Positions 6,338 to 24,758 of a stretch of 64,000 bases of DNA are shown one piece after another. The DNA lies in NCBI GenBank assembly GCA_017885605.1, contig JAFNFT010000071.1, forward strand, positions 85,519 through 149,518, read 5' to 3'. The notes below the pieces were generated by a model. The model was not told where the DNA came from. It did not search any database and saw only the letters and a program-made list of their open reading frames with translations. Made by a program: the position numbers and the translations under genes. Origin of the DNA: Methanobacteriota archaeon. Its GTDB lineage: Archaea; Thermoplasmatota; E2; DHVEG-1. Position 1 is the first letter of the stretch. Each line of letters begins with the position of its first letter.

Positions 6338-6409
6338 ACCCATAGAGGTTTCACCCGATATAAAAAGAGGTATTTGTAAAGTAAAATTTATATGCGATCA
6401 AACTATTCG

Positions 6410-6440: not shown

Positions 6441-6574
6441 TTGTGAGCGGGTAAGATGGGATGCAAAAAAACAGTTTCAATTAAGATTAGATTAACAAGA
6501 ATGTTATATATCACTTTATTTGCAACTATAATTCCGTTAATTTCTTTCTTTAAAAAACAAATTGCTTTAGATTA

Positions 6575-9500
6575 TTGGTGAAGGAGATGCAAAACAAAAA
6601 AAATCTCAATCAATTTTCCCAACAGCATCAGAGTGTTGTTCAAGAAGTTGAACAAATATTACAGGAAAAAAAATACGTCATACCACCTGAAAAACTACTA
6701 TCGCTTGATAATAATTTCCCATCTGCATTCAATGTTTCTTTTACGGGTATAAAAGAGTTTGATCAACTTCTTGATGGCGGATTTACTAAGGGTTCAATTA
6801 TCTTGCTTGCCGGATCATCAGGAAGCGGCAAAACTATCTTTTCCTTCCAATGGCTTTTTGAAGGAATTAAAAACAATGAAAATGGAATCTATATCACTCT
6901 TACAGAACCGCTTTTCAAAACCTTAGAAAATCTTGAAAAACTAAGTTTTTACAATAAAGAAGCTATAGAAAATGAAAAATTGAGAATCGTTGATCTGCGG
7001 AAGATATATGAAAAGGAAGGTTTTGACCAGCAAAAAATCCTCGATTTTATTGAAAACGAGGTCAAACGAACAAATGCAAAACGACTATGCATTGATTCGA
7101 TTACCGCTATCGCGTATCAGCTTGATGATAGGGCCAAGATTAGAGCTTTTATATTTGCTCTAGGTACGACACTTGCAACACTCGGTTGCACAACTGTTTT
7201 AACCAGTGAAGTTTCTGAAATGAATAAATACTCTAAGTACGAAGTCGAGGAATTTATATCTGATGCAATTTTACGATTTGATCAAATTAAAGAAAAAGAC
7301 GAACCACAAAGAATAATACAGATAATCAAAGTGAGAGGGAGAAACCATAGGTCAGATGACATTTATTTCAAAATTACAAAGGATGGCATCACCGTTTTTC
7401 CTAAACTCAGGATTCCGCTTGAACATTTTTCTACGACAGAACGGATCTCGATGGGCATTTCTACGCTGGATGACATGTTAGGCGGAGGTATTTTTGTTGG
7501 TTCTTCTACACTCATAACTGGTTCGCCTGGAACCGGAAAATCTACGTTGGGTTTAAGTTTCCTTGCTGAGGGATTGAAAAATGGGGAGATGTGCCTGTAT
7601 GTTGGATTCGAAGAAAGTAAGAAACAAGTATTAAGAAACGCCAAAAATTTTGGATGGGATTTCGAGAAGTCCGAAAGAAATGGTCTTCTTGTCATGCGAT
7701 GTATTTATCCGAACGAAAAGCATCTTGAAGAACATCTAGCAGATATAAGAAAAATAGTGGAAGAAAAAAAAATTAAAAGATGTGTTGTTGACCCTCTCTC
7801 TGCCATTTCGAGTGCGTTCTCACCGGATGCATTTATAAGTTTTTCAAAACGACTTAATGGATATTTGAAAACTCGTGAGGTGACTCCTTTATTTACATCA
7901 ACCACAAACTCGCTCATAGGCAATACAAAAGATGTAGATTCGCATATTTCTACGATATCAGATAATATTATCTTGTTGCGTTATGTTGAAATGCAAGGTG
8001 ATGTACAGTTTGTAATAAACATTATCAAAATGAGAGGGAGTGAGCATAGCAAAAATCTAAGAATGTACAACATAACAGATAAGGGCTTAGTCGTCGGTAA
8101 AAGTCTCGAAGGTTATGAAGGTGTTACAACTGGTGTCAGTAAAAAAATTGCTGAACTCGAGAAAGAAGGTTTGGAACTTAAGGAAGTTATCAAGCAGAAA
8201 GAAATGGCGGAAAAGGTTCTGCGAGAGAGCGAGGAGAAATTTAGATTATTGTTTAATGACTCTCCTTTAGGTATTGCACTGGTAGATCCAGAAGGAATCA
8301 TTAAAGAAGTAAACAGCAGCTTACTTCAGCTGTTATCAATACGAAAAGAAGAATTTATCGGTAAAAACTTTGTTCAATTAATCTCAGTTTATGGTTTAGA
8401 TGTCCAAGAGCAAACCTCAGATTTCAAAAACAGAATTGCCGGAAAACCATCAAAAAGTGAAATAACATTTTTATCTAAAGACAACAAGAAAGCGACGATG
8501 ACGGTACAGAGTTCGATTATTAAAAGTAACGATGTAATAATTGGTGTTCTCTTCATTTTAGAAGACATCACCGAGCGTAAGCGGGTGGAGGGTATGCTAA
8601 GTGAGACGAATCAATACCTCGAAAACCTATTCAACTATGCAAATGCTCCTATCATCGTCTGGGATGCACAATTCGCAATCACCCGTTTCAATCATGCCTT
8701 CGAATCGTTGACCGGCCGGAGCGTGAAAGATGTTATCGGAAAAACTCTTGAAATTCTCTTTCCCCCAGACCTGGTGGAAAGTTCAATGGAACTAATTCGA
8801 AAAACGCGGGAAGGGAAACAATGGGAGGTGGTCGAGATTGATGTTCTGCATCTCGATGGATCAAGGAGGACCGTCCTCTGGAACTCAGCCAACCTTTTCG
8901 CCCCAGACAGTAAGACTCTCATCGCCACAATTGCGCAAGGTCAAGATATCACCAAACGCAAGCGAGCACTGGACGAATTGAAGGTAGCTAATGAAAAACT
9001 TAATCAAATAAAATCAGATTTTTTCGAAGTGACAACTCGCGAAATAAGATCGCCGTTAACTACAATAAAAGGATATATGGAAATGTTGTCAAATCGAACC
9101 TTTGGTGAAATAAATGATGAGCAAAAAAAATATCTTGATATAATGTTACGGAATACAAATCAGCTTGACAACCTTGTATCAGATCTTGTGGGCATTTCAA
9201 GCATTGAATCAGGGGATATGACTTTTACTTTGAAAAAAACGAGTATTAGTAAGATGGTGAATGAAGCAGTTGAAAAAATACAGTCATCTGCAGATGTAAA
9301 AAACATTGCAGTCAATGTAGAAATAGAGGATCAAATACCTGATTTAATCGTTGACCAAGATCGGATAAAACAAGTCCTTATAGATATACTCGGGTACACA
9401 ATAAAATTCTCACCAGATAAAACTACGGTTAATATGCGCGCAAAAAAACAAGAAACCGATGTTTTATTCGAGATTCAAGACCAAGGATTGAATATACCAA

Positions 9501-9769
9501 AGGATAAACAGAAAAAGATTTTTAAGGCGTTTTACCGAGCTGAAGAAGGTAAAAGTAAAGAATACTTAGGAGGCGGTATTAGACTTGCACTATCACGAGG
9601 TATTATCACCATTCATGGCGGCAAGATGTGGGTAGAAAGCGAGGATGAAAAGGGAAGTACATTTAGATTTACACTGCCAATAAAACCAGTTGATAATATT
9701 CAAACAAGATATAAAGAATCTGACATATTCGAATCAAAAAAAGATGATGAAAACATTGAAATTAATTAA
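6575..9769 (+). CDS. Fusion protein: two KaiC/RecA-like ATPase domains + coiled coil + 2 PAS + HisKA + HATPase_c (KaiC-histidine kinase)
   Basis: Walker A LLAGSSGSGKTIF (domain 1) and LITGSPGTGKSTLG (domain 2), with KaiC-like FDQLLDGGFTKGS and LDDMLGGGIFVGS leaders. EDITERK PAS linkers. H-box TTREIRSPLTTIKGYMEML. G2 region GGGIRLALSRGIITIHGGKMWVESEDEKGSTFRFTLP. Listed start is GTG; ATG at 6587 is more likely. Confidence 0.85.
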   Translation: MVKEMQNKKNLNQFSQQHQSVVQEVEQILQEKKYVIPPEKLLSLDNNFPSAFNVSFTGIKEFDQLLDGGFTKGSIILLAGSSGSGKTIFSFQWLFEGIKNNENGIYITLTEPLFKTLENLEKLSFYNKEAIENEKLRIVDLRKIYEKEGFDQQKILDFIENEVKRTNAKRLCIDSITAIAYQLDDRAKIRAFIFALGTTLATLGCTTVLTSEVSEMNKYSKYEVEEFISDAILRFDQIKEKDEPQRIIQIIKVRGRNHRSDDIYFKITKDGITVFPKLRIPLEHFSTTERISMGISTLDDMLGGGIFVGSSTLITGSPGTGKSTLGLSFLAEGLKNGEMCLYVGFEESKKQVLRNAKNFGWDFEKSERNGLLVMRCIYPNEKHLEEHLADIRKIVEEKKIKRCVVDPLSAISSAFSPDAFISFSKRLNGYLKTREVTPLFTSTTNSLIGNTKDVDSHISTISDNIILLRYVEMQGDVQFVINIIKMRGSEHSKNLRMYNITDKGLVVGKSLEGYEGVTTGVSKKIAELEKEGLELKEVIKQKEMAEKVLRESEEKFRLLFNDSPLGIALVDPEGIIKEVNSSLLQLLSIRKEEFIGKNFVQLISVYGLDVQEQTSDFKNRIAGKPSKSEITFLSKDNKKATMTVQSSIIKSNDVIIGVLFILEDITERKRVEGMLSETNQYLENLFNYANAPIIVWDAQFAITRFNHAFESLTGRSVKDVIGKTLEILFPPDLVESSMELIRKTREGKQWEVVEIDVLHLDGSRRTVLWNSANLFAPDSKTLIATIAQGQDITKRKRALDELKVANEKLNQIKSDFFEVTTREIRSPLTTIKGYMEMLSNRTFGEINDEQKKYLDIMLRNTNQLDNLVSDLVGISSIESGDMTFTLKKTSISKMVNEAVEKIQSSADVKNIAVNVEIEDQIPDLIVDQDRIKQVLIDILGYTIKFSPDKTTVNMRAKKQETDVLFEIQDQGLNIPKDKQKKIFKAFYRAEEGKSKEYLGGGIRLALSRGIITIHGGKMWVESEDEKGSTFRFTLPIKPVDNIQTRYKESDIFESKKDDENIEIN

Positions 9770-9792
9770 AAAAAATTCCAATAAGTGATACC

Positions 9793-10380
9793 ATGTTAAA
9801 AGATGAAACAAAAAAATCTATTGAACAAGCAATACAAATGGACAAACATGGCGTCATAATTATGATAGAACTTCCAATAAATGCTTATTTTGAAATGAAT
9901 TCTTCCACCATTAAAATATTGACAAACCATGGTTTTCAAGGGATATACATTAGCTTTCAGAGACCGTTTAATAACATATCTTCCTTTTTTGAATCTGAGG
10001 GAATAGACACTAATACACTATTATTTATAGATGCTGCAACAGCCCTTTCCGGTGAAAAACAACATGAAGATGCTCGTTGTATACATGTCTCCCAAGAACT
10101 CGATATTGATGAACTGGTAAAAGCCATCTATCTTTCTCTGCCAAAGCTAAAAAGCCAAAAAAAGTTTATTTTTATCGATTCATTAACTACAATATCTCTT
10201 TACAAACCATTATCTCAAATAATGAGATTTTCAGAATTCCTGATGAGGACAGTACGTAAAGAAAACGAGGAAAATGTTATACTCATTTTTAACGTGGCAA
10301 AAGATCTCGCCCAAAAAAAATTTATCAGAGAGGTAGCCTTCCATGTGGACCAAGTAATAAGTGTGGATAATAATGAATGA
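9793..10380 (+). CDS. DUF835-like protein (paralog 3)
   Basis: GIYISFQRPFNNI...LLFIDAATALSG...KFIFIDSLTTISLYKPLSQIMRFSEFLMRTV...VILIFNV: same pattern as 3966. Starts 24 nt after the KaiC-histidine kinase stop. Confidence 0.45.
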   Translation: MLKDETKKSIEQAIQMDKHGVIIMIELPINAYFEMNSSTIKILTNHGFQGIYISFQRPFNNISSFFESEGIDTNTLLFIDAATALSGEKQHEDARCIHVSQELDIDELVKAIYLSLPKLKSQKKFIFIDSLTTISLYKPLSQIMRFSEFLMRTVRKENEENVILIFNVAKDLAQKKFIREVAFHVDQVISVDNNE

Positions 10381-10930
10381 TCTAGAAAAAATTTCTCAAG
10401 AATTAAACAATCTGCCAAAAGGCTGGATTGTAATGCTGGAAACTTCTCCAGAAAAAATGTTAGAGGTTTCTTTGTCAACGATAAAATTTTTATCTGATGA
10501 AAAAAACTACATTGGAATTATCGTATCAGCAAGCAGACCTCAAAAAAATTTGATACAACTCTACCAACAAAAAAAAATCGATATTAAAAAAATTCTCATT
10601 CTCGACTGTATCTCAAAAAGCCAGAGTTTGGACCTGGAGGAAGCGAGCAATGTTATATATCTTGAATCAGTATCTTCTCTTACAAATATTTCACTTGCAA
10701 TAACAGCGAGTATTCAACGAATACCGGGAGATAAATTTGTTTTTATTGACTCTATCAACAGCATGCTTATTCATAACAAACCTGAAGTTTTTGCTCAATT
10801 CATTCATGGGATTTTAACTAAGCTGAGAATTGGCGGGATAAACGGTTTACTTATTTCTCTAGAACATGAAACGAACAAAGAGATACATGCAGAAATTGCA
10901 CAACTGTGCGATCGGATTGTGAAAATATAA
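10361..10930 (+). CDS. DUF835-like protein (paralog 4)
   Basis: KFVFIDSINSMLIHNKPEVFAQFIHGILTKLRIGGINGLLISLEHETNKEIHAEIAQL is the strongest DUF835-type match of the four. Overlaps the upstream paralog by 20 nt and the downstream kaiC by 25 nt. Confidence 0.5.
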   Translation: MWIIMNDLEKISQELNNLPKGWIVMLETSPEKMLEVSLSTIKFLSDEKNYIGIIVSASRPQKNLIQLYQQKKIDIKKILILDCISKSQSLDLEEASNVIYLESVSSLTNISLAITASIQRIPGDKFVFIDSINSMLIHNKPEVFAQFIHGILTKLRIGGINGLLISLEHETNKEIHAEIAQLCDRIVKI

Positions 10931-11853
10931 TGGATGAAAAAAAGAGTAAACAAAGTAATATCTTTGACATGGCTAAAATCAAAGCAGAGATTGAGAATAA
11001 GCTAAAGGGTACTGATGACAAAGGTTATTCCACGGGAGGAACTTTAGAACAAAAAACGCAACAGTTGCATGAAACAAAAAATGAAGCTAAAACGGGAAAA
11101 AAATTTGTTTTAACAGGCGTTTCCGGATTTGATGAACTATTTGAAAATGGCATACCAAAAGGTTCCAATATTCTCGTTGCTGGAGGTGCAGGTTCAGGAA
11201 AAACAATTTTTTGTCTACAAACACTGTGGTACCATATCTTATGTGGGGAAAAATGTTTTTACATGAGTTTTGAAGAATCTGAAAAAAGATTAATGGAACA
11301 TATGGAGGATTTTGGTTGGAATCCAGAAAAACTTCTCGCATCAGGTAACTTTAAAATCAAGAGGTATCTACCGAGCGATATTCATTATGTATCTGAAAAA
11401 GGTAACGATAATGCAATGTTTGCTAAAGAAGAGGACAGTCAACTTTTACAGTTAGAGCCAGTAACTTTGGAAGAAGGATTTAATCCTGATTTTGTTGTCA
11501 TTGATTCACTTACGGCAATTGCCTCGGCATTTATGGGAAAAGAAGGTTCGTACAGGTTTTATGCTGAGCGACTCTTCAGGTTTTTTGAAAATATGGGGAG
11601 TACAAATTATTTTATAACAGAGACCGGACAGATGCCAGAAACTTTTTCACAGACCGGTGTTGAGGAGTTCTTAGCTGATGGGGTGATTGTTTTGTATAAT
11701 ATTAAACGAGAAAATATGCGGGAACGCGCTATAGAGGTTTTGAAAATGCGTGGTACAAAACATCAAGAGAGAATAGTTGCAATGAAAATTTCCGAAAAAG
11801 GTATGGTTGTGTATCCAAAACAGGAGATTTTTGGTGAGATTCACACTAAATAA
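10906..11853 (+). CDS. Single-domain KaiC-like (RecA superfamily) ATPase
   Basis: Walker A VAGGAGSGKTIFCLQ preceded by the KaiC-like GVSGFDELFENGIPKGSNIL. Walker B DFVVIDSLTAIAS. Confidence 0.8.
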   Translation: MRSDCENIMDEKKSKQSNIFDMAKIKAEIENKLKGTDDKGYSTGGTLEQKTQQLHETKNEAKTGKKFVLTGVSGFDELFENGIPKGSNILVAGGAGSGKTIFCLQTLWYHILCGEKCFYMSFEESEKRLMEHMEDFGWNPEKLLASGNFKIKRYLPSDIHYVSEKGNDNAMFAKEEDSQLLQLEPVTLEEGFNPDFVVIDSLTAIASAFMGKEGSYRFYAERLFRFFENMGSTNYFITETGQMPETFSQTGVEEFLADGVIVLYNIKRENMRERAIEVLKMRGTKHQERIVAMKISEKGMVVYPKQEIFGEIHTK

Positions 11854-11946
11854 AATTCATATTTATAGTGGCCCTCAAACCCGATTTAAACAACCGTTGG
11901 GGAAACGTGTTTGTCTAACTTGAAAACCATGTTTTTATTAAATCCA

Positions 11947-12777
11947 TCAAGAAGCTATCCACGCATCTATTTCTATGATGTTTAGAGCGAGATTAACGGT
12001 GGTGATTCCTAAAAATTCTATAGTTATTTCGCCAGTAGTATCCGTCACTGAAAAATTGGCTCCATAGGTAAGGTTTGCTGATTGTAATGTACTTTTAAAC
12101 GCTTGATGCCAGGCATTTGGATAATTTGTGGTAATTGTAATGTTTTTTATATTGTTCATCAAAGAAGTTTTATTACTAACGAATTCTGTCCGTATCGGAT
12201 AGGTTCCATATCCGCCTGCGGATGTTCTTCCACCAACTCCTGTGATGTTTACAATATCGAGGGTTAGGTTAACAACATTTACGTTTATTATTGCGGAAAA
12301 AGGTTTTATGGACATTACATTTCCTTCAGATTGATTCAATATTACAGATCCAGCCTCATAAATGTAAGATTGATCAAGATAGTATACATTTTTCGATGAA
12401 TATTTTATGATTCCAAGTGAATACGAAGCGGAGTTTGAGATATTTGTGATTGTCACTGTACAATTATTTGATAAAATCAGAAGAGACCCAAACGCTCTAC
12501 TCGCTGAGAAATAAGGTATTTCTTTATTTCCAAGAGTAATAGATGTTGACATTGGTGTTTTTTGCCCAGTTGCAGCTTGTATGTCTATCGCAGATTTTAA
12601 CTGAGAAAACTGATCTGCTACGTCACCCATATGCTCTGCTTCTATCGACCTCATCCATTTTGGCACATACGTGGTTTGTATCAATGAAATAACAATGACA
12701 ATGAGTCCTACAAGTAATATTGCAGTAATAATGCCTGCCACTGCATTATCCGAACACCATCTCTGGTTCACTCTCAT
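11947..12777 (-). CDS. Pilin-like protein with class III signal peptide / N-terminal hydrophobic helix (putative minor pilin), rich in N-x-S/T sequons
   Basis: N-terminus DNAVAGIITAILLVGLIVIVISLIQ, about ten N-x-S/T sequons. Last gene of the minus-strand pilus operon. Confidence 0.45.
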   Translation of the reverse strand: MRVNQRWCSDNAVAGIITAILLVGLIVIVISLIQTTYVPKWMRSIEAEHMGDVADQFSQLKSAIDIQAATGQKTPMSTSITLGNKEIPYFSASRAFGSLLILSNNCTVTITNISNSASYSLGIIKYSSKNVYYLDQSYIYEAGSVILNQSEGNVMSIKPFSAIINVNVVNLTLDIVNITGVGGRTSAGGYGTYPIRTEFVSNKTSLMNNIKNITITTNYPNAWHQAFKSTLQSANLTYGANFSVTDTTGEITIEFLGITTVNLALNIIEIDAWIAS

Positions 12778-12788
12778 CTCAATTCTCC

Positions 12789-14540
12789 TTACGTATGCCT
12801 ACATCTCGAATCAGCACTCGCAGGTGCGCCCTCGACAGTACCAGCATACCTCCCTCTACTGTAAAATTCATAATACACATTCCCATTCGGAAAATCAAAA
12901 CTCCAACTCCATGGATGCGAAGTATCAGGGTTATTCGAATTATTCCAGATTATCCAATTGCTCTGTATCAAAGAATAATTATTTTCCTGCCCCCAAGTTC
13001 CATGAGATGGTTCAGGGGAGACGTGTTTACAGACACGGATATCATCATAATATGAATAACTTCCATAGTGATTCTGTAATGAAATTTCTCCTGCGTTTGA
13101 ATATGCAGAAGAAGGAGGAGTCTCACTACATGTTTTTGTCTTCCCATCACATGTTATTGTAAACGATGAGCCACTTACGGTAATATTGAATGGTTTCCAT
13201 GATCCCGTTCCAACGGCAGTTCCTGTTACTGAACAACCGGTAAAAAACGCCCAAGCGGTATAGGGTGGTCTGAGGTAAGAAAGACCTTCATTGGTTCTTG
13301 CGTCCATTCTAGATTTATACCCGGTGTTACCCGTATAATTTCCTCGCCATCCGACTTCTGCAATGGCATTTGATGAAAGGTATACTTTTCCTTCAATTGT
13401 TCCATTGATGAATCCAGTATAGGTTGCATTTGAACCCAGAACGGTGTGGCCATAAGACCCGCTCGTTGAACCTCCACCACAGACGAGATATCCATTTTCA
13501 ATTCTTGGGTAAACTCCTGAGAGTTTGTGCCTTGTCCATTTACTGAGATCCCCACTAAAATCATCAAAGAAAATGAACGTATTCGTTCCATTACTTTTGT
13601 TCGTAGCAGCACTATTTCCATAATATAACCAGATTGAGCTGCCTGTTGTATTCAAATTGTCAGGTATTTTGACCCAAAAGGTAGCATTACTGCCTGTGTT
13701 TTTCTGTTCTATCCAGTAGTCCAGTTTGGTTGTATTATCAGTATAGCTGATAAATCGTATATCGCCAAAGTCGTTTCGTGCTTTGTTATTGATATAGACA
13801 GTGTCCTCACTATCAGTCCCTGTCCCATTTTTCACAATAATTTTTACTTGGTAATTTGATCCAGCGCCACTTGCGCTTCCTATGTCATGCTTCTTACGGT
13901 ACCCCCAAGAGTTGTTCCACCAATTTTCATTCTCGCCCCATGAAGCATTATCTGCAGAATAACGATACCAGAGCGTTACAATCTCCAATCCTGAATCGCC
14001 AGTAGCATTGACAGTAAGTGGAGAAGATGTTTGATGGTAGGGACTAATTGTATCAACAGAAGTAACAAGTGACGGAATAGTCGTTGTTTCTCCCTCCTGT
14101 AGAACTCCCATCATCATTATAGAATTGCTATCCCTATCAACTACAGTAGCCTCGATTTGCAAACCTGTCATATTCCCAGATAAATTGTAGTGGTAGACGA
14201 GCTGCTCACTAATATCCCATCGATAATTTCCATTAGAATCAATCAATAAATCGTGAACAGTCTTACTAATCCTTGTTCCCCCTACGATAAATGAGACTGT
14301 TGCGTTTTGATCCAGTGAATCTCCACCACGATGTTCTAGTACTATATTACTCCCTTCAATTGATCCGACAATATCTACAGAAGGTACCGACGGAGAAAAT
14401 GGATACGACATAACAATGAAATACAATATGGAGAAAAGTGCTACACCTATCCCTACCATTAAAATAGCGCCAATGACTTCAGAGACAGCACCATCCAGTT
14501 TTTTCCATTTCATTTTCATATCCATTATACCACTCTTCAA
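12789..14540 (-). CDS. Large pilin-like surface protein A: archaeal type IV pilin N-terminal domain + LamG/DUF2341-like beta-sandwich region
   Basis: KWKKLDGAVSEVIGAILMVGIGVALFSILYFIV matches the archaeal pilin N-terminal (class III signal) pattern. IWLYYGNSAATNKSNGTNTFIFFDDFSGDLSKW is typical of DUF2341/LamG. Many N-glycosylation sequons. Paralog of 15033-17282. Confidence 0.65.
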   Translation of the reverse strand: MKSGIMDMKMKWKKLDGAVSEVIGAILMVGIGVALFSILYFIVMSYPFSPSVPSVDIVGSIEGSNIVLEHRGGDSLDQNATVSFIVGGTRISKTVHDLLIDSNGNYRWDISEQLVYHYNLSGNMTGLQIEATVVDRDSNSIMMMGVLQEGETTTIPSLVTSVDTISPYHQTSSPLTVNATGDSGLEIVTLWYRYSADNASWGENENWWNNSWGYRKKHDIGSASGAGSNYQVKIIVKNGTGTDSEDTVYINNKARNDFGDIRFISYTDNTTKLDYWIEQKNTGSNATFWVKIPDNLNTTGSSIWLYYGNSAATNKSNGTNTFIFFDDFSGDLSKWTRHKLSGVYPRIENGYLVCGGGSTSGSYGHTVLGSNATYTGFINGTIEGKVYLSSNAIAEVGWRGNYTGNTGYKSRMDARTNEGLSYLRPPYTAWAFFTGCSVTGTAVGTGSWKPFNITVSGSSFTITCDGKTKTCSETPPSSAYSNAGEISLQNHYGSYSYYDDIRVCKHVSPEPSHGTWGQENNYSLIQSNWIIWNNSNNPDTSHPWSWSFDFPNGNVYYEFYSRGRYAGTVEGAPASADSRCRHT

Positions 14541-15013
14541 AATAAAAATTTGAAAACAAAAAGTGAGATCACACCAAGAACAAAACTGTACCGAAGGCCT
14601 GAAGAAAGTTTACCATCCATCATGAACCCTCCGATCATACCTGCACCAATACCCTGTGTAAAAACAAATGAACTCAATGCGTATTTCAACGCCACGGGAT
14701 CCACTTTATTCATCATGACACCAGCCATTTCAACCGTGCTGCTCTGACTCTTGAAAAATGAGGCGAACAGCGTGTTATTAAGAATCATAATTATTCCGAG
14801 GAACACAAAAAAACTCATGATAATTACAACGGTATAGGTAGCCATTTCCGATTTTCTCTGCTCCTTAATATTATTAATTTGATTGATTTCTTTTGCCGCT
14901 GCTTTAAAAACCTTTGACGTCATCCCCCCCATTCTCAATCCTGTATTTATCGAAACAACTATTCTTTTGACAATAGGAGATCTCATCCGTTCAGCAAAAT
15001 TCTCAAACTTCAT
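13955..15013 (-). repeat. Segmental duplication copy A (pilin 5-prime ~590 bp + tadC 3-prime ~480 bp); copy B at ~16695-17745
   Basis: The pilin N-terminal ~95 codons are essentially identical between 14225-14520 and 16950-17245. The tadC 3-prime 477 bp (14537-15013) is ~90% identical to 17260-17740 by eye. Confidence 0.6.
14537..15013 (-). pseudogene. 5-prime-truncated duplicate of the tadC/flaJ-like gene (C-terminal 158 codons only); may be expressed as a small 3-4 TM protein
   Basis: MKFENFAERMRSPIVKRIVVSINTGLRMGG... aligns residue-for-residue with the last 158 aa of the 586-aa protein at 17260-19020 (KVFENFAERMRSAIIKRIVVSINTGLRMGG...). Confidence 0.5.
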
Positions 15014-15032
15014 TTTTTTTTATCTCGCCTCT

Positions 15033-17282
15033 TTACATTTTTTGGCATCTTGCATCAGCGCTCACGGGTGCGCCCTCGATAGTACCAGCATACCTTCCTA
15101 TACTGTAAAACTCATAATATCCCACCCCTTTGGGAAAGTTAAAACTCCAACTCCATGGACTATTTAAGTCAGGATTAGTATCACCTGTATAAATAATCCA
15201 GTTATGTCCTTCTCCTCCACCTATATATGTTTCTTCAGCTCCAGCTGAGCTATAAGATGGTTCTATTGCAATGCATTTTCTAACAAAAACATCATCAAAA
15301 GAAGCTGTTTCTCCCATGCTTCCTCCATTAAGAGCAAGGTAACCTGGACGACCACTTCTTGGCCATGAATTAAAGGCACCCGGCGTCCCACCAATATTCC
15401 AGACTCTTCCTCTGACATTTGTTCCATCATGATAGATTTCAAACCAATACCATGTTCCAAAAGACCATGCAGTTCGAGTATATGATGTTCCCCAGGCTAC
15501 ATGGTCATCTAAGAATTGTTCTGTCGTCTTGGTAACGAAATCATGAAACACATAATTGTAACTTTCACCATTAGCGGCACTAGTTTTAATGCTTAGACCT
15601 GCCCTTCCATCGGCATCTGTTCCAGCCTCTGGTCTCACTTTTGCTCTAATTGCATAATAATTGGATTGAGGAGCTGATGTTGCAATACATTTCTTAGGGT
15701 CGGCAGTTCCTGTGGATGTCTGTCTCATTATCCCGCCTGTTTCGCTCCAAGTGCCTTGGTATGTAGTCCATTTGCTTGCATCAATAGAATTATCGTCAAA
15801 GTTATCAAAGAAATTAAAGGTGTTAGTTCCATTACTAGCATTTGAAGCAGATGGATTGCCGTAATAGCAATAAATGCTGGTACTGCTATTCAAGCTGTCT
15901 TTTACTTCTACCCATACCTTTGCAAGTCTGTTTGGGGCTGTTCCGGATACATCTTCTACCCAGAAATCAAGCGAGGTTGTACCACTCTTATTAGTAAATC
16001 TTAAGTCTCCACCTATGTTTTTCCCGCTAGGAAAGTTTGATGAGTGTCCACCCAAATTAAAATATGCCCCTGAAACACCAGACGTTTCCCCTATCATTAA
16101 AAGCACTTGATAGTTAGGTCCAGCTCCAGCTTGACCAGTAATGTTAATCTTCTTTCTATAAATCCAATTAGCATCATACCAGTTCTCACTATCCCCCTCA
16201 CCAACTGTAGCATTTACATATATTTGATCAATGTAAACATCATTGCTATTATTTTGTGCATCACAACGGAATTTAATCTTCATATCAGATGGGAACGTAT
16301 AACTCGTTTCATTAATCCAAACAATTTCATAATAAAACTGATCGTTTACAAAATCAGTACCAGCAACAAAAGAAGCTACAGTCTGCCAAATAGCTCCATC
16401 ATAATACTCCACAAAAAAATCATGACCATCGCTCAGACCCTCAGATCGAAACCAGAAACTAATAGTAATACAAGTATAACCCGGTGAATGTACATCCACC
16501 CCATTTGTATGATAAAAAGACGATGCATTACCACCATTACCCTGTATATCTGCAGCTTTGCTTCCCTGATGAGCGTATGTACCACCTGTATAAAGAGAAC
16601 AATTCACTCCACCGTCACTGTAATTACCAAATCCTCCTTCAAAATCATCATATGTCAATGTAGTCCAATCCACGGTCCAATTATCATTACTCCAACGATA
16701 ATAAAGTGTAACGTTATTCAACCCAGGATCACCAATAGCATAAACAGTAAGTGGAGAAGATGTTTGATGGTAGGGACTAATTGTATCAACAGAAGTATCT
16801 AGTGAAGGAATAGTCGTTGTTTTTCCCTCCTGTAGAACTGTCATTATCATTATAGAATTGCTGTCTGTATCAATTACGGTAGCCTCGACTTGCAAATTTG
16901 TCATAGATGAATTGTTGTAGACAAGCTGCTCACCTATATCCCATCGATGATTTCCATTAGTATCATTTAAAAAAAATCCAACTGTATTACTAATCCTTGT
17001 TCCCCCTACGATAAATGAGACTGTTGCGTTTTGATCCAGTGAATCTCCACCACGATGTTCTAGTACTATATTACTCCCTTCAATTGATCCGACAATATCT
17101 ACAGAAGGTACCGACGGAGAAAATGGATACGACATAACAATGAAATACAATATGGAGAAAAGTGCTACACCTATCCCTACCATTAAAATAGCGCCAATGA
17201 CCTCAGAGACAGCACCATCCAGTTTTTTCCACTTTATTTTCACAGCCATCAACCACCCTTCAAAATACAAACTTAAAAACAA
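15033..17282 (-). CDS. Large pilin-like surface protein B (749 aa): type IV pilin N-terminal domain + LamG/DUF2341-like domains with an extra ~170-aa insert
   Basis: N-terminal 180 aa nearly identical to protein A. YCYYGNPSASNASNGTNTFNFFDNFDDNSIDASKWT is DUF2341/LamG-like. Conserved C-terminus YYEFYSIGRYAGTIEGAPVSADARC. Likely true start is MAVKIKWKK (~17249). Confidence 0.65.
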   Translation of the reverse strand: MFLSLYFEGWLMAVKIKWKKLDGAVSEVIGAILMVGIGVALFSILYFIVMSYPFSPSVPSVDIVGSIEGSNIVLEHRGGDSLDQNATVSFIVGGTRISNTVGFFLNDTNGNHRWDIGEQLVYNNSSMTNLQVEATVIDTDSNSIMIMTVLQEGKTTTIPSLDTSVDTISPYHQTSSPLTVYAIGDPGLNNVTLYYRWSNDNWTVDWTTLTYDDFEGGFGNYSDGGVNCSLYTGGTYAHQGSKAADIQGNGGNASSFYHTNGVDVHSPGYTCITISFWFRSEGLSDGHDFFVEYYDGAIWQTVASFVAGTDFVNDQFYYEIVWINETSYTFPSDMKIKFRCDAQNNSNDVYIDQIYVNATVGEGDSENWYDANWIYRKKINITGQAGAGPNYQVLLMIGETSGVSGAYFNLGGHSSNFPSGKNIGGDLRFTNKSGTTSLDFWVEDVSGTAPNRLAKVWVEVKDSLNSSTSIYCYYGNPSASNASNGTNTFNFFDNFDDNSIDASKWTTYQGTWSETGGIMRQTSTGTADPKKCIATSAPQSNYYAIRAKVRPEAGTDADGRAGLSIKTSAANGESYNYVFHDFVTKTTEQFLDDHVAWGTSYTRTAWSFGTWYWFEIYHDGTNVRGRVWNIGGTPGAFNSWPRSGRPGYLALNGGSMGETASFDDVFVRKCIAIEPSYSSAGAEETYIGGGEGHNWIIYTGDTNPDLNSPWSWSFNFPKGVGYYEFYSIGRYAGTIEGAPVSADARCQKM

Positions 17283-19020
17283 AAAGTGAAATCACACCAA
17301 GAACAAAACTGTACCGAAGCCCTGAAGAAAGTTTACCATCCATCATGAACCCCCCAATCATACCGGCACCAATACCTTGAGTAAAAACAAATGAACACAA
17401 CGCGTATTTCAATGCCACCGGATCGACCTTATTCATCATGGCACCAGCCATTTTCACGGTACTACTCTGACTCTTGAAAAATGAGGCGAACAGTGTATTA
17501 TTAAGTATCATAATTATTCCGAGGAACACAAAAAAACTCATGATAATTACAGTGGTATACGTAGACATCTCCGATTTTCTCTGCTCTTCAATATTATTAA
17601 TTTGATTGATTTCTTTTGCTGCTGCGATAAAAACCTTTGATGTCATCCCCCCCATCCTCAATCCGGTATTTATCGAGACAACTATTCTTTTGATGATGGC
17701 GGATCTCATTCGTTCAGCGAAATTCTCAAACACCTTTGTTACGGGAATACTCCAAGATAGCTCAGATTTCATTTTTTGTATTTCAGGGGTCAATCTTCCA
17801 TAACGGCCTTTTGATGAAATTTTTATTGCATCAAAAATGGTCATCCCTGAGGAGATACAGTTTCCCATTTCGACCACAAAATCTGGTAATCTTCGCTCAA
17901 TCTCACGCTGTTTTTGCGCTTGCTTATGACAATAAAAGGTAATAGGCCCTATGAAAACCAGGACGGACAGGAAAAAAACATCAAAAAAGAAGTAGGTGGT
18001 GAAATTCATATATTTGTAATAACTTAATACATAAATAATGCAGTAAAAAGAAAGCAATAAACCTGTTGAAAGAAGCAGAATTAAAATAAATGGTCTGTTT
18101 TTTTTATAAAAATCTTTCACTGAAGGTCTCTTCTTCGAATGAGGGTTTCTTATCTCTTCTATACTTGTTGATCGTATGAGAGCGTAATATCCACCATATG
18201 CTATGGGTAGAACAACGAACGAAAAAATAAACAAAATCTCTATAGTGAAACTTGAGGAACCACCAAAAAAACCCATCACAGAGATAATGATCACAAGAAA
18301 AATCGGAAACGCGACAAGCGTGGTGACAAATGTTTCTGCAAGAACCCCAAGAGTATCCAAGTTTTTCTTCCTTGCTAAAAATTCATCGGCCATGTACTGA
18401 TCTACAATGGTTGAAAGGTAAATATGAAGGTCACTACCTGATTGAATAGTACCGATTATCCCTTGGAGAAACGATTTGAATTTTTTTGAAGGAGTGTTTT
18501 CAAGGGCGTGTTTTAGCGCAGTAATCGTATCAATCCCCATGACATCGAGTTCTATGATGATTTTCTTTGCTTCTTGTTGTACTTCACCATAGATATCGAT
18601 TGTTGCAAAAGATCGAAAGATATCTGCGGGTGAAACACCCGCAATTGCCATGGTGCTGATAAAATTCACCGCATAAGGTAAGAATCTATCGATATTCGCG
18701 GCTCTTTTTTTGATATGAGAGTGCGGGATGTATTGACACATCACCCAGATGCTAAACGGCACAAGTGCAGGCAAAAGAATCGCAAGTAAGAGAGTATTTA
18801 ATGAAGGGAAAAAGAGATACAGGAGTAAAGATGGGATGATGGTGAGTATAAACCCCAGGAGCATTGTCATCAAAAACATCGAGAAGTACTCCTGGTATAA
18901 CATATTGATATCGGCTTGTTTTAATAGTATGTTTTTCTCTTGGAGCCGCTGTTTTGTTTTTATTGAAAAAAATCTATCAAATTTCCAGAGGCAGAAGTTC
19001 GAATATTTTGAGGATTTCAT
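17260..19020 (-). CDS. Type IV pilus / archaellum assembly membrane platform protein (FlaJ/TadC/PilC-like)
   Basis: 586-aa polytopic membrane protein with the typical FlaJ/TadC topology, immediately downstream of the secretion ATPase and overlapping it by 4 nt (ATGA). Confidence 0.7.
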   Translation of the reverse strand: MKSSKYSNFCLWKFDRFFSIKTKQRLQEKNILLKQADINMLYQEYFSMFLMTMLLGFILTIIPSLLLYLFFPSLNTLLLAILLPALVPFSIWVMCQYIPHSHIKKRAANIDRFLPYAVNFISTMAIAGVSPADIFRSFATIDIYGEVQQEAKKIIIELDVMGIDTITALKHALENTPSKKFKSFLQGIIGTIQSGSDLHIYLSTIVDQYMADEFLARKKNLDTLGVLAETFVTTLVAFPIFLVIIISVMGFFGGSSSFTIEILFIFSFVVLPIAYGGYYALIRSTSIEEIRNPHSKKRPSVKDFYKKNRPFILILLLSTGLLLSFYCIIYVLSYYKYMNFTTYFFFDVFFLSVLVFIGPITFYCHKQAQKQREIERRLPDFVVEMGNCISSGMTIFDAIKISSKGRYGRLTPEIQKMKSELSWSIPVTKVFENFAERMRSAIIKRIVVSINTGLRMGGMTSKVFIAAAKEINQINNIEEQRKSEMSTYTTVIIMSFFVFLGIIMILNNTLFASFFKSQSSTVKMAGAMMNKVDPVALKYALCSFVFTQGIGAGMIGGFMMDGKLSSGLRYSFVLGVISLFVFKFVF

Positions 19021-21029
19021 TTAGAACCGCCTTTTGCCTTTTCCAATACAACCTCTGGCTCTCGGCTATAGTCTGCTACAACCTTTCCGACTTCCTTATA
19101 CGAGCGCAGATTATTTTTTCTCATCCATTCCAATACAATAATTCTATTTTTAACCTCTGAAATGAGCTGCGCATCGCTCCATCCTTTCTTACTTTGAGTT
19201 CTATCAAGTAAGATGCTTTTTGCTTCTTTCTTAAAATGATCCTCTGATTCGGAAACCCATGAAAAAGGGATTGAAAAAATTAGTTTGTTCGTACTAGGCT
19301 CCATTTTTATTATTTCGATAACATTGGTGATTCTTCGAGCAGGTTTCCCATTTATCACAGTAGCTTTTAAAAACACGACAAGATTAAGGGAGATAAGAAG
19401 TGCTTTCGGCAAAGAAATAGGGGGATTCTCCAGCCTCTGAACCAACGTATGAATATCACTTGCATGAATTGTTGAATATGAAATATGACCAGTAGCCATC
19501 GCTTGGAAAAGAGCATAGGCTTCTTGCCCACGTATCTCACCTACGATTACAACTTGTGGCCGCTGACGCAGTGCAGCCCTAGTAAGATCAAACATATCAA
19601 TATCTTTACTAGTTTTATGTTCTGCAGATTGAGAAAAACCAGTTCTCGTAGTACTCGCTATCCAGTTCTCATGGGGGAGCATCAGTTCTCTGGTATCCTC
19701 TATGGAAAAAATCTTATATGCAGCAGGTAAAAAAAGTGCAAAAGCATTCAATGTGGATGTCTTCCCAGAAGCAGTACCCCCACAGAAGAGAATAGATGCA
19801 CCATTTTCAATGGCAAGCCAGAAATATGCCGCCATCTCCAATGACATCGTGCCGGTATTAATCAAATCAATTGGAGTGAAGGGATCCTCTCGAAATCTCC
19901 TAATGGTAAATGTTGAAAATGGCGTCACGGTTTTCGCCAACATTACCGATAGCCGAGACCCATCCGCAAGTTTCCCATCGATAATCGGTTCATAAATTGA
20001 GATTTGTTTACCGCAAATCTGAGCCAATTTCACCGCAAAAGAATCCAATTCATCAGGATTTTCAAAGACGATGTTGCTCTTTATCGATTCATATGTTTTA
20101 TGATAAATAAAAATAGGGATATTAGGACCGTCACAAGAAATATCCTCAATACCTTCGTCATGCATCAATATATCGATTTTACCATATCCTGTGAACTCTT
20201 GAAAAATATAGTAAAAGATTTTATCCTTGGAGATTTCGCTGAGTTTAATATGGCCATCAACAATAATTTTTTGTAATGATTCATCCAGCTTTATTGATTT
20301 TTCAACGGTGTTACTTTCGAAAACATCAATAGTGGAACGTAATTCAAACAACTCAAGGAGTTTGTTTTTTATTTCTTGTTCCTCTTTTTCCAGCGAAGGC
20401 TCATGTACCTCATAGACGTAGGTCTTACTATTTTTATCAAACTTGATTACCCGACTTCCAAGACCTTTCCATCCAAAACCTGTTCGTTCGTCGTCTGCCT
20501 TCTCGCTGCTTTTTTTCTGTAACCCTTGTTGATCGTTTGATACAAAATCTTCTGATGCATTTAGAGTTTTTCCCCTTTGTGGTATTGGTAATTCTTTGGT
20601 TTTTTCAGGTGGTTTCATTACTTGTTGTAATTTTTGTGGTGCCATTGATTCTTTTTGAACCCCTGCGTCATCGTTTTCTCCTATCAACCTCGTGCGGAAC
20701 TCTGAGTCATCCGTCTGGTCTATATTTGCATCTCTTGTTTTTATCCCAAGAATATTTTTTAGTTGTCGTTCCACAGAGGCCATAAATTTAAAATTAGGGT
20801 TGTCGGTGGTGGGAATATCTGAAATAACGTTTCCTGATTCAACGGTTTTTTCATTAAAAATATCCTTTGAACATGTAACAAGCTCAAATTCCTGAGGTTT
20901 TTCCTCTATTTTTCCCAGCATTTCCTCTTTTCGAAGTATTTTTATTATCTCAGGTTCGTCCTTCATTGAAACCTCCAAAAAACAACTTTTTGTATTTGGA
21001 GAAAACAGAAATCTTCTTGACAGTATCAA
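19017..21029 (-). CDS. Type IV pilus assembly ATPase (FlaI/TadA/GspE-VirB11 family) with a long acidic N-terminal extension
   Basis: Walker A FCGGTASGKTSTLNAF, Asp box/Walker B RPQVVIVGEIRGQEA, His box ATGHISYSTIHASD. The ~190 aa before the conserved core are low-complexity and acidic. Confidence 0.85.
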   Translation of the reverse strand: MILSRRFLFSPNTKSCFLEVSMKDEPEIIKILRKEEMLGKIEEKPQEFELVTCSKDIFNEKTVESGNVISDIPTTDNPNFKFMASVERQLKNILGIKTRDANIDQTDDSEFRTRLIGENDDAGVQKESMAPQKLQQVMKPPEKTKELPIPQRGKTLNASEDFVSNDQQGLQKKSSEKADDERTGFGWKGLGSRVIKFDKNSKTYVYEVHEPSLEKEEQEIKNKLLELFELRSTIDVFESNTVEKSIKLDESLQKIIVDGHIKLSEISKDKIFYYIFQEFTGYGKIDILMHDEGIEDISCDGPNIPIFIYHKTYESIKSNIVFENPDELDSFAVKLAQICGKQISIYEPIIDGKLADGSRLSVMLAKTVTPFSTFTIRRFREDPFTPIDLINTGTMSLEMAAYFWLAIENGASILFCGGTASGKTSTLNAFALFLPAAYKIFSIEDTRELMLPHENWIASTTRTGFSQSAEHKTSKDIDMFDLTRAALRQRPQVVIVGEIRGQEAYALFQAMATGHISYSTIHASDIHTLVQRLENPPISLPKALLISLNLVVFLKATVINGKPARRITNVIEIIKMEPSTNKLIFSIPFSWVSESEDHFKKEAKSILLDRTQSKKGWSDAQLISEVKNRIIVLEWMRKNNLRSYKEVGKVVADYSREPEVVLEKAKGGSK

Positions 21030-21311: not shown

Positions 21312-22616
21312 TTAAGCATATTTTCTAATTACCAAAATGATAATAACAATTGCTATCCCCAAAAATGTGAAAATAAGGTAATCAAATAAAGGAGATCTCT
21401 GTAAATCTTTACCGGGCGAGGTTGAAATAAAGATGGTGACATATTCTGTCGCTGTATCACTAACACCATCGTTATCAATAACCCTTAGAGATATCTGATA
21501 TGTTCCTCCATGAGAATAATTATGACCAGGATTCCTCACATTCGAAGTTACTCCATCCCCAAAATCCCAACTCCAAGAAACCACTACTCCGTCAGCATCT
21601 AATGATGTATCGGTGAACAATATCGTATCATTAATCTTTGGAAGAAACGGTGAAAAAAACGTAAACATAGCGGTAGGCCCCACATTTAACGCGGATATCT
21701 TCCGAGAAACCTGATTTACTGCTTGATCATCATCAACAATACTCAAAGTCACAATATACGATCCATTATCAACATACTGATGTGTCACATTCTGCAATGT
21801 AGACGTATTTCCATCACCGAAATCCCAAAACCATGAAACAATATGGCCATCGAAATCTGTCGACGTATCATTAAAAGTCACGATTTGTAGATCAGTAGGA
21901 ATAAGGGGAGAAAAACTAAAATGAGCAACAGGCGGTACCGTAAACGGTTTCATCAACGGATGCATATCAAAACTACCAGCACCAGCAATACGATAGGAGG
22001 TATCACCAAATCCATCCCTATCACCATCCACACCGGTATAATCATCCCAATAGTTTCCACCGTGGAGATAACCAGCATCCCAGGAGTTCCTCCCCAGATC
22101 ATACGCATTCTGCGTATTATTCAAAAAATTATTATTATAGATAACGTTGTTAAAAACACTTCCTAAAAACATACCGTACTCTGCATCTCGAAAAGTGTTT
22201 TCCGTAATAATACTACCAGACGAATTATATATTCTAATACCACAGGTACCATTTTTGATTGTACAACCACATATCGTCACATTATCAGCAGAAATATTTA
22301 CAACATCTTTAGTTCCACAGCCATCAATAATCACATTTCCTTTACCAGTACGATTTACATTGATAGTTTTATTGATAACTATATTTCCACGATAGATCCC
22401 TGCAAAAACATATACAGTACCGTTTTCCGTTACCGCATCAATACCATCTTGAATAAACTGAAATGGATGACCAGATGAACCATCCCAAGGACCCACAGTA
22501 TTGTTACCATTAACAAAAATAGGAGACCCCGCGGCATGTACCGTATCAAATAGAAAAACAAATACAAATGAAAATACCATTAAAAAAACTACGAAGTATA
22601 CCAACTTTTTTTGCAT
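21312..22616 (-). CDS. Cell-surface protein: signal peptide, right-handed parallel beta-helix region, two PKD domains, C-terminal TM anchor
   Basis: N-terminal MQKKLVYFVVFLMVFSFVFVFLF...VHAAG. Beta-helix-like repeats NVTICGCTIKNGTCGIRIYNSSGSIITENTF. Two WxWDFGDG PKD motifs (SWFWDFGDGNTS, SWSWDFGDGVTS). C-terminal LIFTFLGIAIVIIILVIRKYA. Confidence 0.75.
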   Translation of the reverse strand: MQKKLVYFVVFLMVFSFVFVFLFDTVHAAGSPIFVNGNNTVGPWDGSSGHPFQFIQDGIDAVTENGTVYVFAGIYRGNIVINKTINVNRTGKGNVIIDGCGTKDVVNISADNVTICGCTIKNGTCGIRIYNSSGSIITENTFRDAEYGMFLGSVFNNVIYNNNFLNNTQNAYDLGRNSWDAGYLHGGNYWDDYTGVDGDRDGFGDTSYRIAGAGSFDMHPLMKPFTVPPVAHFSFSPLIPTDLQIVTFNDTSTDFDGHIVSWFWDFGDGNTSTLQNVTHQYVDNGSYIVTLSIVDDDQAVNQVSRKISALNVGPTAMFTFFSPFLPKINDTILFTDTSLDADGVVVSWSWDFGDGVTSNVRNPGHNYSHGGTYQISLRVIDNDGVSDTATEYVTIFISTSPGKDLQRSPLFDYLIFTFLGIAIVIIILVIRKYA

Positions 22617-24706: not shown

Positions 24707-24758
24707 ATTACCACCATATTCGTGAGTATTTTTTCTCTAAAGTATGAAGAATGGACTC

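Follow-up and report, generated by a model that had tools for sequence, protein, structure and literature searches.

How does an operon for a type IV pilus come to hold two large pilin genes with the tail of a third gene between them, and is that tail a small gene or a scar? The question is raised by a stretch of 64,000 nucleotides (nt) from a Methanobacteriota archaeon (contig JAFNFT010000071.1, positions 85,519 to 149,518 of the forward strand), called here the window. On its minus strand, open reading frames (ORFs) and a Pfam scan mark out a compact type IV pilus locus in the order ATPase, tadC, pilB, tadC fragment, pilA, and a gene for a DUF7289 protein. Full-length tadC (17260-19020), a pilC-like platform gene encoding 586 amino acids with T2SSF in two stretches (E=4.1e-28), is the parent of the fragment (14537-15013), a 5'-truncated copy with an ORF of 158 codons and a partial T2SSF match. 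Each of the two pilin genes encodes a large protein with Pilin_N and DUF2341 domains: pilB (15033-17249; Pilin_N 6.5e-11, DUF2341 1.4e-20), with a central region or cassette of what we call the B type, and pilA (12789-14525; Pilin_N 3.4e-11, DUF2341 1.2e-23), with one of the A type. Counted from ATG, they have 738 codons (as also in the gene call of the Joint Genome Institute) and 578 codons, respectively; the mechanical ORFs are 749 codons (to 17282, from TTG) and 583 codons (to 14540).

The closest public genomes are metagenome-assembled genomes (MAGs) of uncultured Thermoplasmata, and the whole account given here rests on metagenomic sequence from uncultured organisms. Related loci, 104 in number, were drawn from genomes and metagenomes and mapped for the ATPase, the three thirds of tadC, the pilin ends, and DUF7289. 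L-numbers refer to these loci, and contigs L001-L009 make up the lineage of the window.

The account to which we give somewhat better than even credence as a whole is that a module was duplicated once, that its conserved arms have since mediated the swapping of cassettes, and that the fragment has been kept by selection. The duplicated module would have consisted of tadC codons 413-586, the adhesin-like pilin gene that follows, its stop, and five further bases. An illegitimate join would by accident have set a Shine-Dalgarno (SD)-like motif upstream of the in-frame Met417 codon, so that, we propose, the truncated copy can be translated within the operon as a protein of 158 amino acids, comprising the remnant of the second cytoplasmic T2SSF bundle and three transmembrane helices. 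The tadC 3' end (or the fragment), about 570 nt at the 5' end of the pilin genes, and about 120 nt at their 3' end would act as homology arms, and recombination within them would exchange central adhesin cassettes, themselves highly dissimilar, among strains as well as among array positions. The outcome would be an operon in which a single ATPase/platform pair is followed by two dissimilar DUF2341 surface proteins.

The duplication itself is plain. A repeat search and blastn find direct repeats at 13961-15008 and 16694-17731 with 89.4% identity over 1048 bp, bearing out the proposal of an earlier note on this DNA that a segmental direct duplication lies inside the pilus operon and has left behind a copy of tadC that is truncated at its 5' end but keeps an intact ORF; the same repeat search of the window turned up no inverted repeats. 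The duplicated block comprises the last third of tadC (about 520 nt), the spacer, and the start of the pilin gene. Copy A (13961-15027, minus strand, from blastn and alignment) holds the fragment and the first approximately 190 codons of pilA, and copy B (16694-17785, minus strand, its 5' limit set by pairwise alignment) holds tadC codons 413-586 and the first approximately 190 codons of pilB. The block recognized by the earlier note is thus real, but its 5' limit was placed too short, as homology runs about 20 nt further, to tadC codon 413. The fragment differs from the 3' end of its parent at 49 of 474 nt (89.7% identity, where about 90% had been estimated), and 35 of the 49 differences are at third codon positions. 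Even the arrangement of tadC stop and pilin start has been copied exactly (TTTTGA-AG(A/G)GTGG-..ATG, with the stop 10-12 nt before the pilin start). The last approximately 40 codons of the pilin genes are also conserved (12802-12915, minus strand, repeated at 15046-15159; blastn, 84% over 114 bp) and provide a downstream recombination arm.

Within the repeats lies a tract of 215 nt, the longest common substring, that is perfectly identical in the two copies (14263-14477 in pilA, 16987-17201 in pilB, both on the minus strand). In each gene it occupies codons 17-88, encoding the last part of the signal peptide, the hydrophobic helix, and the first part of the globular region. A run of this length is expected by chance at a frequency of about 3e-9, given the background identity of 89%. 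The pilins had been described as essentially identical over their first 95 or so codons; an identical N-terminal part does exist, but it extends to 82 residues.

What kind of event produced the second copy can be read from its far end. At the junction (15014-15032, minus strand), the bases AGAGG, which normally come after the pilin stop, are fused to tadC codon 413, and the sequences of the junction align to tadC TGAAATACAAAAAATGAA. The combination of stop and AGAGG is also found 3' of the pilin gene in a locus with a single pilin (L010). Pairwise alignment identifies the ATG of the fragment as the codon for an internal methionine of TadC, Met417 (…PEIQKMK…), so what had been taken for the fragment's own ATG is not a new start. 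After this ATG, the fragment lacks 36 nt that the parent retains, codons 419-430 (S419-V430, SELSWSIPVTKV; 17731-17766, minus strand), giving a protein that begins MKFENF…; the gap of 12 codons is seen when junction and parent are aligned in the lineage of the window, in L028, and in L029. The sequence that results, pilin stop + AGAGG + TGAAAT.. + ATG AAG TTT GAG, is common to the window lineage (L001-L009), L028, and the lineage of L011-L016, L023, L029, and L072, and the junction sequences of the window lineage, L011/L023/L029, and L028 are colinear. Since junction and 12-codon deletion are alike in all three lineages, the event happened once. Since the point five nt beyond the pilin stop and tadC codon 413 are not homologous, the join was illegitimate, not an unequal crossing-over between pilin paralogs as the earlier note had supposed. 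To judge from these junctions, one illegitimate join is at the origin of the duplication.

The join brings an SD-like motif, GAGGTGA (GAGGCGA in the window), to a position 10-14 nt before the ATG of the fragment. The motif has its complement in the conserved 3' end of archaeal 16S rRNA, and from the sequence we infer that the fragment makes use of it. The possibility was considered that the ATG and its ribosome-binding site were captured from a downstream DUF7289-like gene, as the junction resembles an intergenic region of L010, but this was rejected because the ATG aligns to Met417 of TadC; of the upstream part of the junction, stop plus AGAGG alone derives from the spacer downstream of the pilin gene. 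In L028 (3231-3254) and L029 (10229-10252), the ATG of the fragment lies in frame with the TAG of the upstream pilin gene, across a spacer of 18 nt, and read-through would fuse the two. In the window (15011-15035), a spacer of 19 nt puts the two in different frames. The relation of the two frames is probably without meaning.

Comparison with related genomes, which the earlier note had recommended, bears out the duplication: the fragment is present in three lineages and absent outside a narrow clade. Close relatives (TadC 88-97% identical) include five loci with a single large pilin gene (L017, L035, L037, L031, and L010) besides the three lineages with the fragment. About 65 more distant loci (TadC identity at most 62%) lack the fragment; they have tadC, a short pilin, DUF7289, and a further pilin. 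The gene order in the window lineage is tadC-pilB-fragment-pilA-DUF7289. In L028 it is tadC-pilY (891 amino acids)-fragment (157 amino acids)-pilA-DUF7289, and in L011-L016, L023, L029, and L072 it is tadC-pilA'-fragment (117 amino acids)-pilX-DUF7289-like-pilin-…-pilin (B type)-DUF7289. The long array of the last lineage (L029:8459-14739 and L072:1-8879) encodes a pilX of 520 amino acids, a DUF7289-like protein of 300, a pilin of 504, and a B-type pilin of 786. The gene for this last protein in L072 has a divergent N-terminus and no fragment before it, and the order of A and B is opposite to that in the window.

The genomes that bear the fragment do not form a clade in a comparison of ATPases, where the synonymous distance (dS) is 0.33 between the window lineage and L029 and 0.21-0.24 between the window lineage and lineages with a single pilin. 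Such a distribution fits either repeated loss or the transfer of the module between lineages by homologous recombination. Repeated loss should be easy, because recombination between the direct repeats restores an operon with one pilin gene.

Some other arrangements were encountered. In L024 (1-1440, from a Thermoplasmatota MAG), a tadC 3' end (85% identical) is followed by about 230 nt and then a convergent KaiC gene, with neither pilin nor DUF7289 between, suggesting a variant from which the whole pilin array has been deleted. In L019 (11682-15583), a short pilin gene (179 amino acids) precedes a B-type pilin gene (1034 amino acids) with no tadC fragment between them, so two-pilin arrays also arise without the copying of part of tadC. 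In a distant lineage, L105 (780-2635) holds an orphan 3' piece of tadC (P0008), 60% identical to the fragment, with some 250 nt of AT-rich, non-coding sequence before it, a short pilin gene and DUF7289 after it, and 89% identity to the full locus L067 from there onward. It was considered as an ancient orphan fragment with the same breakpoint and rejected, as it begins at an independent break near codon 426; moreover, the scaffold is chimeric, since its first 780 nt are a bacterial sequence of high GC content (FabD-like). A further candidate (P0002, in L106) was rejected as a frameshifted, low-quality contig.

Did the duplication also create the second pilin, as the earlier note had it? The two proteins are 82% identical over their first approximately 195 residues and 75% over the last approximately 56, but only about 35% identical between. 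Furthermore, each central part has close counterparts in other genomes. The A-type cassette is 91% identical to those in the second pilin of L028 and the first of L029, and the B-type cassette is 90% identical to that of the last pilin of L072 (786 amino acids) and 80% to that of L019, where TadC is 77% identical. Since the centers are so different from one another and have such counterparts elsewhere, the duplication did not create the second pilin through recent copying and divergence. The sequences point instead to two old cassette types lying between homogenized flanks.

The cassettes have also moved. The A type occupies the second position of the array in the window lineage and L028 and the first in L029, and the B type is first in the window lineage and last in L072. 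Since their counterparts are found at either position, the conserved flanks act as recombination arms for cassette swaps. At least eight different central cassette types are found among lineages whose TadC proteins are at least 88% identical, and the C-terminus of pilA' in L011 is a mosaic, first A-like and then B-like. The flanks themselves exchange sequence. Over its first 300 nt, pilA matches pilB of its own genome at 94% identity and its orthologues at only 78-85%, and over the next 370 nt the relation is reversed (86-88% to the orthologues, 74.5% to pilB). This incongruence, taken with the perfect tract of 215 nt, is the standard signature of intragenomic gene conversion, and the tract is a recent conversion tract. 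The suggestion that the conserved 5' region of the pilin genes would permit cassette exchange is thus upheld by both the tract and the change in position of the A cassette. The locus may be described as a variable array, with conserved flanks and diverged centers exchanged among strains. It does not contain silent or 5'-truncated donors: both pilin genes are complete and belong to one operon.

That leaves the fragment. For the mapping of its breakpoint, residues 338-586 of TadC were modeled with AlphaFold2 (shallow alignment, mean pLDDT (predicted local distance difference test) 70). In the model, a cytoplasmic bundle of helices comes before three long helices at the C-terminus. Met417 falls in the third helix of the second cytoplasmic bundle, and according to the helix map, the fragment retains about 2.5 of the 6 bundle helices and the three C-terminal transmembrane helices. 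It matches positions 54-123 of the 125 in the Pfam T2SSF profile, with 26.4 bits against a cut-off of 25.2. Judging from the profile match and the model, the fragment is a derivative of the T2SSF family and not a member in the functional sense. Nor is it one part of a platform encoded in pieces, since an intact tadC of 586 codons lies upstream and the fragment duplicates residues 417-586, less 12.

The fragment does not look like a gene in decay. Its ORF, ATG, and SD-like sequence are intact in the copies of the window lineage, of L028, and of the L029 type. Comparison of fragment with parent gives a ratio of nonsynonymous to synonymous substitution rates (dN/dS) of 0.07-0.09 (at dS 0.28-0.46, with the pair in the window at 0.46), comparison of fragment with fragment gives 0.05-0.11 (at dS 0.32-0.72), and comparison of parent with parent gives 0.045-0.12. 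The ratio is low both in the 55 codons nearest the junction (0.05-0.11 between fragments, at dS 0.2-0.6) and in the last 62 codons. Branch counts were obtained by arithmetic on pairwise substitution counts among the three sequences attached to an A cassette, and the ratios of nonsynonymous to synonymous changes are about 4.8:13 for the window fragment, 8.3:13 for the L028 fragment, and 5.3:15 for the functional tadC end of L029, where neutrality would predict about 48 nonsynonymous changes per branch. The branches of the fragments are not clearly different from that of the functional sequence. Only one to three residues per fragment are unseen among 68 distinct full-length TadC C-termini.

The earlier note had left open whether the fragment is a pseudogene or a small membrane protein. 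These data argue against a decaying pseudogene, although they do not prove a free-standing function. The reading that we favor is that purifying selection has acted on the coding sequence of the fragment during nearly all its history, and a small protein is the more parsimonious explanation of the substitution data. We consider the chances evenly balanced that the fragment is translated and has been kept by selection as a free-standing small membrane protein with three helices. The product would probably be a TadC-derived transmembrane module sitting with the platform or with the pilins. What the sequences show directly are the anatomy of the locus, its single origin, the conversion tract, the shuffling of cassettes, and the dN/dS values; translation of the fragment, its insertion into the membrane, and whatever role it may have are what we infer. 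For the suggestion in the earlier note that it could be dominant-negative, nothing in the data gives specific support.

Several observations weigh against a selected protein. The fragment lacks the first three bundle helices and 12 further residues, leaving it without a complete T2SSF domain, and in the L029 lineage it has lost another 39 codons, including those for the first transmembrane helix, plus two single codons, a loss that should invert the topology of the remaining helices. The distance from the SD-like motif to the ATG (10-14 nt) exceeds what is usual. Replacements private to the fragments number 10 in 426 codons, as against 6 in 1248 codons of the eight closest parents (a 4.9-fold excess, P=0.002), and two of them, E48K and R139H, hit columns that are 96-100% conserved. 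The fragments have undergone three to four deletions, as against none in 14 parents. All are in frame, but selection is not needed to explain this, because they are flanked by short direct repeats (GAAATGGC and a run of alanine codons). Among 1.84 billion representative proteins, a search turned up no comparable family beyond this small clade: short matches to the C-terminus of TadC begin at internal Met codons, keep the 12 codons, and resemble partial gene calls, so the idea of a wider family was set aside. Finally, recombination with functional alleles could mask a relaxation of selection. The locus demonstrably recombines, the fragment is the upstream arm in every cassette swap, and, as sampled alleles are 6-10% apart from every other, the donors in such exchanges would usually be unsampled.

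The last points lead to the rival that survives best. Perhaps the fragment is a functionless scar that serves as the upstream arm of the second cassette and has been repeatedly overwritten by functional tadC 3' sequence, supplied by the same genome or by DNA from outside, so that it would have had little time to evolve as a fragment. The neighboring tract of 215 nt is direct evidence of conversion. In L029, the fragment resembles its own parent (91-93%) more than it does other fragments (87-88%), and the tadC 3' end attached to the A cassette is part of the functional gene in L029 and a fragment in the window lineage and L028. Truly private changes are few in each fragment and about half of them are nonsynonymous, the pooled counts being 12 synonymous and 11 nonsynonymous (in 17 sequences, where synonymous sites are mostly already polymorphic; the test is therefore weak at synonymous sites, and only the nonsynonymous counts were used in the comparison given above). 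The excess of private replacements, the deletions that extend to a transmembrane helix, and the confinement of the fragment to a narrow clade are also in keeping with a scar. However, the overwriting requires an unsampled donor in each of the three lineages. The sampled full-length tadC allele closest to any fragment is no more than 93-94% identical, and a test for long identical runs within the tadC part, after about 100 comparisons, revealed none that was significant, nor any linking a fragment to one of the 14 sampled parents. The parent in the same genome was not a recent donor, since fragment and parent differ there by a dS of 0.28-0.46. Moreover, given the low ratio in the 55 codons next to the fragment-specific deletion, each conversion would need to begin no more than a few dozen bases from the junction. 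Repeated overwriting is possible, and we take it seriously while judging it distinctly less than even. A variant of the idea, that the 3' part of each fragment is the recently demoted, formerly functional tadC end of the recipient, is unsupported, as the L029 fragment is not closest to the end that precedes the X cassette in L060, and the 3' parts of fragments are more diverged at synonymous sites than the parents are among themselves; unsampled donors could rescue it.

A second alternative asks less of the fragment than does a selected protein. Perhaps its frame is kept open only so that ribosomes reach the native tadC stop just before the start of pilA, which would couple translation of pilA to it as that of pilB is coupled to tadC, with the residues themselves irrelevant. 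The exact copying of the stop/start arrangement speaks for such translational coupling, as does the retention of ORF, ATG, and SD-like motif in three lineages with every indel in frame. But coupling conserves frame, not residues, and so cannot yield dN/dS values of 0.05-0.11; nor does it explain why 35 of 49 differences from the parent are at third positions. We think it improbable.

It might also be that an assembler stitched together two alleles from different strains, tadC-pilB and tadC-pilA, through their shared sequence. A perfect repeat of 215 nt does mislead assemblers, and many contigs break there: five end at a point corresponding to window position 14351, L005 and L007 start at 17107, and L006 starts at 17076, all within the repeat, as is expected of assemblies from short reads. 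One contig (L003:2940-4414) runs from the fragment through the tract into a second copy of pilB (identical at 975 of 977 positions to its own first copy) and not into pilA. Misassembly across the exact repeat is the most likely cause, the alternative being a genuine variant, tadC-pilB-fragment-pilB. Stitching of alleles, however, would not join nonhomologous points or produce a deletion of 36 nt seen in no full-length allele. The exact fragment protein is present on nine independent metagenome contigs, a diverged form is found in two other lineages (including MAG contigs from NCBI), and L004 is 100% identical to the window over 11449-15372, spanning the end of pilB, the fragment, pilA, and DUF7289. 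As an explanation of the duplication, an artefact is refuted and retains very little credence, though consensus calling might, in principle, have made the 215-nt tract look more exact than it is.

The remaining alternative, ordinary paralogy, is that two old pilin genes are alike in their signal peptides and N-terminal helices alone and no tadC event took place; the earlier note had named similarity confined to the signal-peptide region as what would refute its proposal. It might have been entertained because archaeal pilins do have conserved N-termini in common (Pilin_N) and tend to duplicate in tandem (PMC4858521), but it is refuted by a nucleotide identity of 89% that spans 520 nt of coding sequence in tadC, the spacer between tadC and the pilin gene, and 190 codons of the latter, with the pilin 3' end conserved as well, while the rest of the protein is about 35% identical.

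If the fragment is indeed a selected protein, one may speculate further on its role. It might be a "mini-TadC", a new component of the pilus acting beside full-length TadC, for example in docking or handing over the second adhesin-like pilin, and with the upstream pilin gene it might form a self-contained add-on module. Such a module, flanked on both sides by tadC 3' sequence, would insert into the tadC end of related strains by homologous recombination, and its insertion would spread extra adhesin genes horizontally, re-creating the fragment each time. We offer this extension tentatively and consider it rather unlikely.

The pilus system as a whole is of a known kind, its features matching a census of archaeal type IV pili (Makarova et al. 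2016; PMC4858521). Like the euryarchaeal loci described there, it has a core of ATPase and TadC, Pilin_N proteins, large DUF2341 proteins, and a KaiC cluster nearby. The large DUF2341 proteins with class III signal peptides were predicted in the census to be PilY-like tip adhesins, pilins were found prone to tandem duplication and modular evolution, and KaiC ATPases are typical neighbors (PMC4858521). In contrast to those loci, the unit duplicated here is not a gene but a block that begins within tadC and ends shortly after the pilin gene, and an intact, conserved, partial tadC ORF lies between two adhesin-like genes. No mention of truncated or fragmentary tadC genes was found in the census.

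The closest analogue that has been described is a cluster of tandem paralogues, lpl, in Staphylococcus aureus, where the evolutionary unit that is inherited and recombined runs from the 3' part of an ORF through the spacer into the 5' part of its neighbor (Tsuru and Kobayashi 2008; PMC2568036). Both loci show a conserved stretch for recombination, variable regions shuffled among strains, incongruent phylogenies within a single ORF, and a unit that crosses a gene boundary (here the tadC 3' end, spacer, and pilin 5' end). They differ in that the lpl genes encode bacterial lipoproteins with a conserved central region, whereas here the gene ends are conserved and the center is variable. They differ also in that one member of the unit here is a truncated copy of a different and essential gene of the machinery.

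Antigenic variation of pilE and pilS in Neisseria likewise relies on repeated pilin sequences with conserved and variable parts and on non-reciprocal transfer. The window shares with it the repetition of such pilins and gene conversion between the copies (for context on the Neisseria system, see PMC4877100). Here, however, both pilin genes are complete, with start and signal peptide, and lie in one operon, with no silent 5'-truncated cassettes, and the conversion tract is in the conserved part instead of the variable part. Nor is a dedicated initiation element known here, though no search aimed at one was made.

Partial-gene relics arise by tandem duplication or by illegitimate recombination facilitated by homology, and they normally decay. 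The fragment resembles them in having one homologous and one illegitimate end, a truncated copy at a novel joint, and direct repeats able to delete the intervening DNA. It is unlike them in keeping an open frame, a start signal, and a dN/dS like that of its parent in three lineages whose fragments are separated by a dS of 0.3-0.7.

Platforms made of separate polypeptides have precedents. In the bacterial TadB/TadC pair, the platform is encoded in pieces, each with one T2SSF domain. In Cuniculiplasma divulgatum, of the class Thermoplasmata, the platform protein is also encoded as separate pieces, CdiPFa and CdiPFb (PMC12448462). In both cases the platform of a type IV filament is workable as separate polypeptides, and the precedent of CdiPFa/CdiPFb lends some plausibility to the idea that the fragment acts as a small protein. 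Their pieces, though, are complementary halves that replace the full-length protein, each matching, so far as has been described, the whole of an N- or C-terminal region, whereas here full-length TadC persists and the extra piece consists of T2SSF positions 54-123 and three transmembrane helices.

Tandem duplication, gene conversion, and cassette shuffling are all known processes at loci encoding surface proteins. What is new is the mapping, in an archaeal pilus operon, of a recombination unit that crosses a gene boundary and has a junction of single origin, and the discovery of a truncated ORF from a platform gene that is intact and parent-like in dN/dS across three lineages. The modular evolution of archaeal type IV pili was known, but the recombination units have so far been unmapped at the nucleotide level, and this locus offers a datable junction of single origin, a fresh conversion tract, and natural variants with adhesin cassettes in exchanged places. 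If the fragment is expressed and selected, it would be an unrecognized accessory component of a type IV filament machine and a new small membrane protein that originated in a partial duplication. Otherwise, the locus would be a clear case of recombination making a dead gene fragment look constrained, and a caution for gene calling in metagenomes on the basis of dN/dS.

As for the rest of the operon, the first gene (19017-21029, minus strand) encodes a pilus assembly or secretion ATPase of 670 amino acids (Pfam T2SSE, E=2.1e-29). It overlaps the start of tadC by 4 nt, and its product is 85-98% identical in amino acid sequence in related loci. The last gene of the array (11947-12777, minus strand) encodes a pilin-like protein (Pfam DUF7289, 1.5e-10) with the N-terminal motif NAVAGIITAILLVGL, that of a prepilin-type substrate, as are also pilA and pilB by their Pilin_N matches. 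A DUF7289 gene directly follows the last large pilin gene in the window lineage, L017, L028, L035, L037, and L072. The operon thus encodes what is looked for in an archaeal type IV pilus locus: a T2SSE ATPase, a polytopic platform with two T2SSF stretches, and substrates with class III signal peptides. A prepilin peptidase (PibD/EppA) was not seen among the approximately 30 ORFs scanned, a scan that did not exhaust the window.

Adjoining the pilus operon is a cluster of genes for KaiC-like ATPases (3966-11853, plus strand). It includes a fusion protein of 1064 amino acids with two KaiC domains, PAS domains, and a histidine kinase (6575-9769, plus strand), together with short proteins of the KaiC/DUF7504/DUF7090 kind, three to four in number. 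One KaiC gene (10906-11853, plus strand) keeps its position beside DUF7289 in related loci. On the other side, just upstream of the ATPase in all close relatives, is a gene for a surface protein with NosD and PKD domains (21312-22616, minus strand), beyond which (23006-29906, minus strand) lie genes for a HAMP histidine kinase of 566 amino acids and a multi-PAS histidine kinase of 1715 amino acids. Farther along is a long cluster of glycan-synthesis genes, all on the same strand (37316-63950, plus), encoding glycosyltransferases (GT2 and GT1/GT4), a UDP-GlcNAc 2-epimerase, an NAD-dependent epimerase/dehydratase, a methyltransferase, and a B12/radical-SAM enzyme. The products of this cluster could glycosylate surface proteins such as the pilins.

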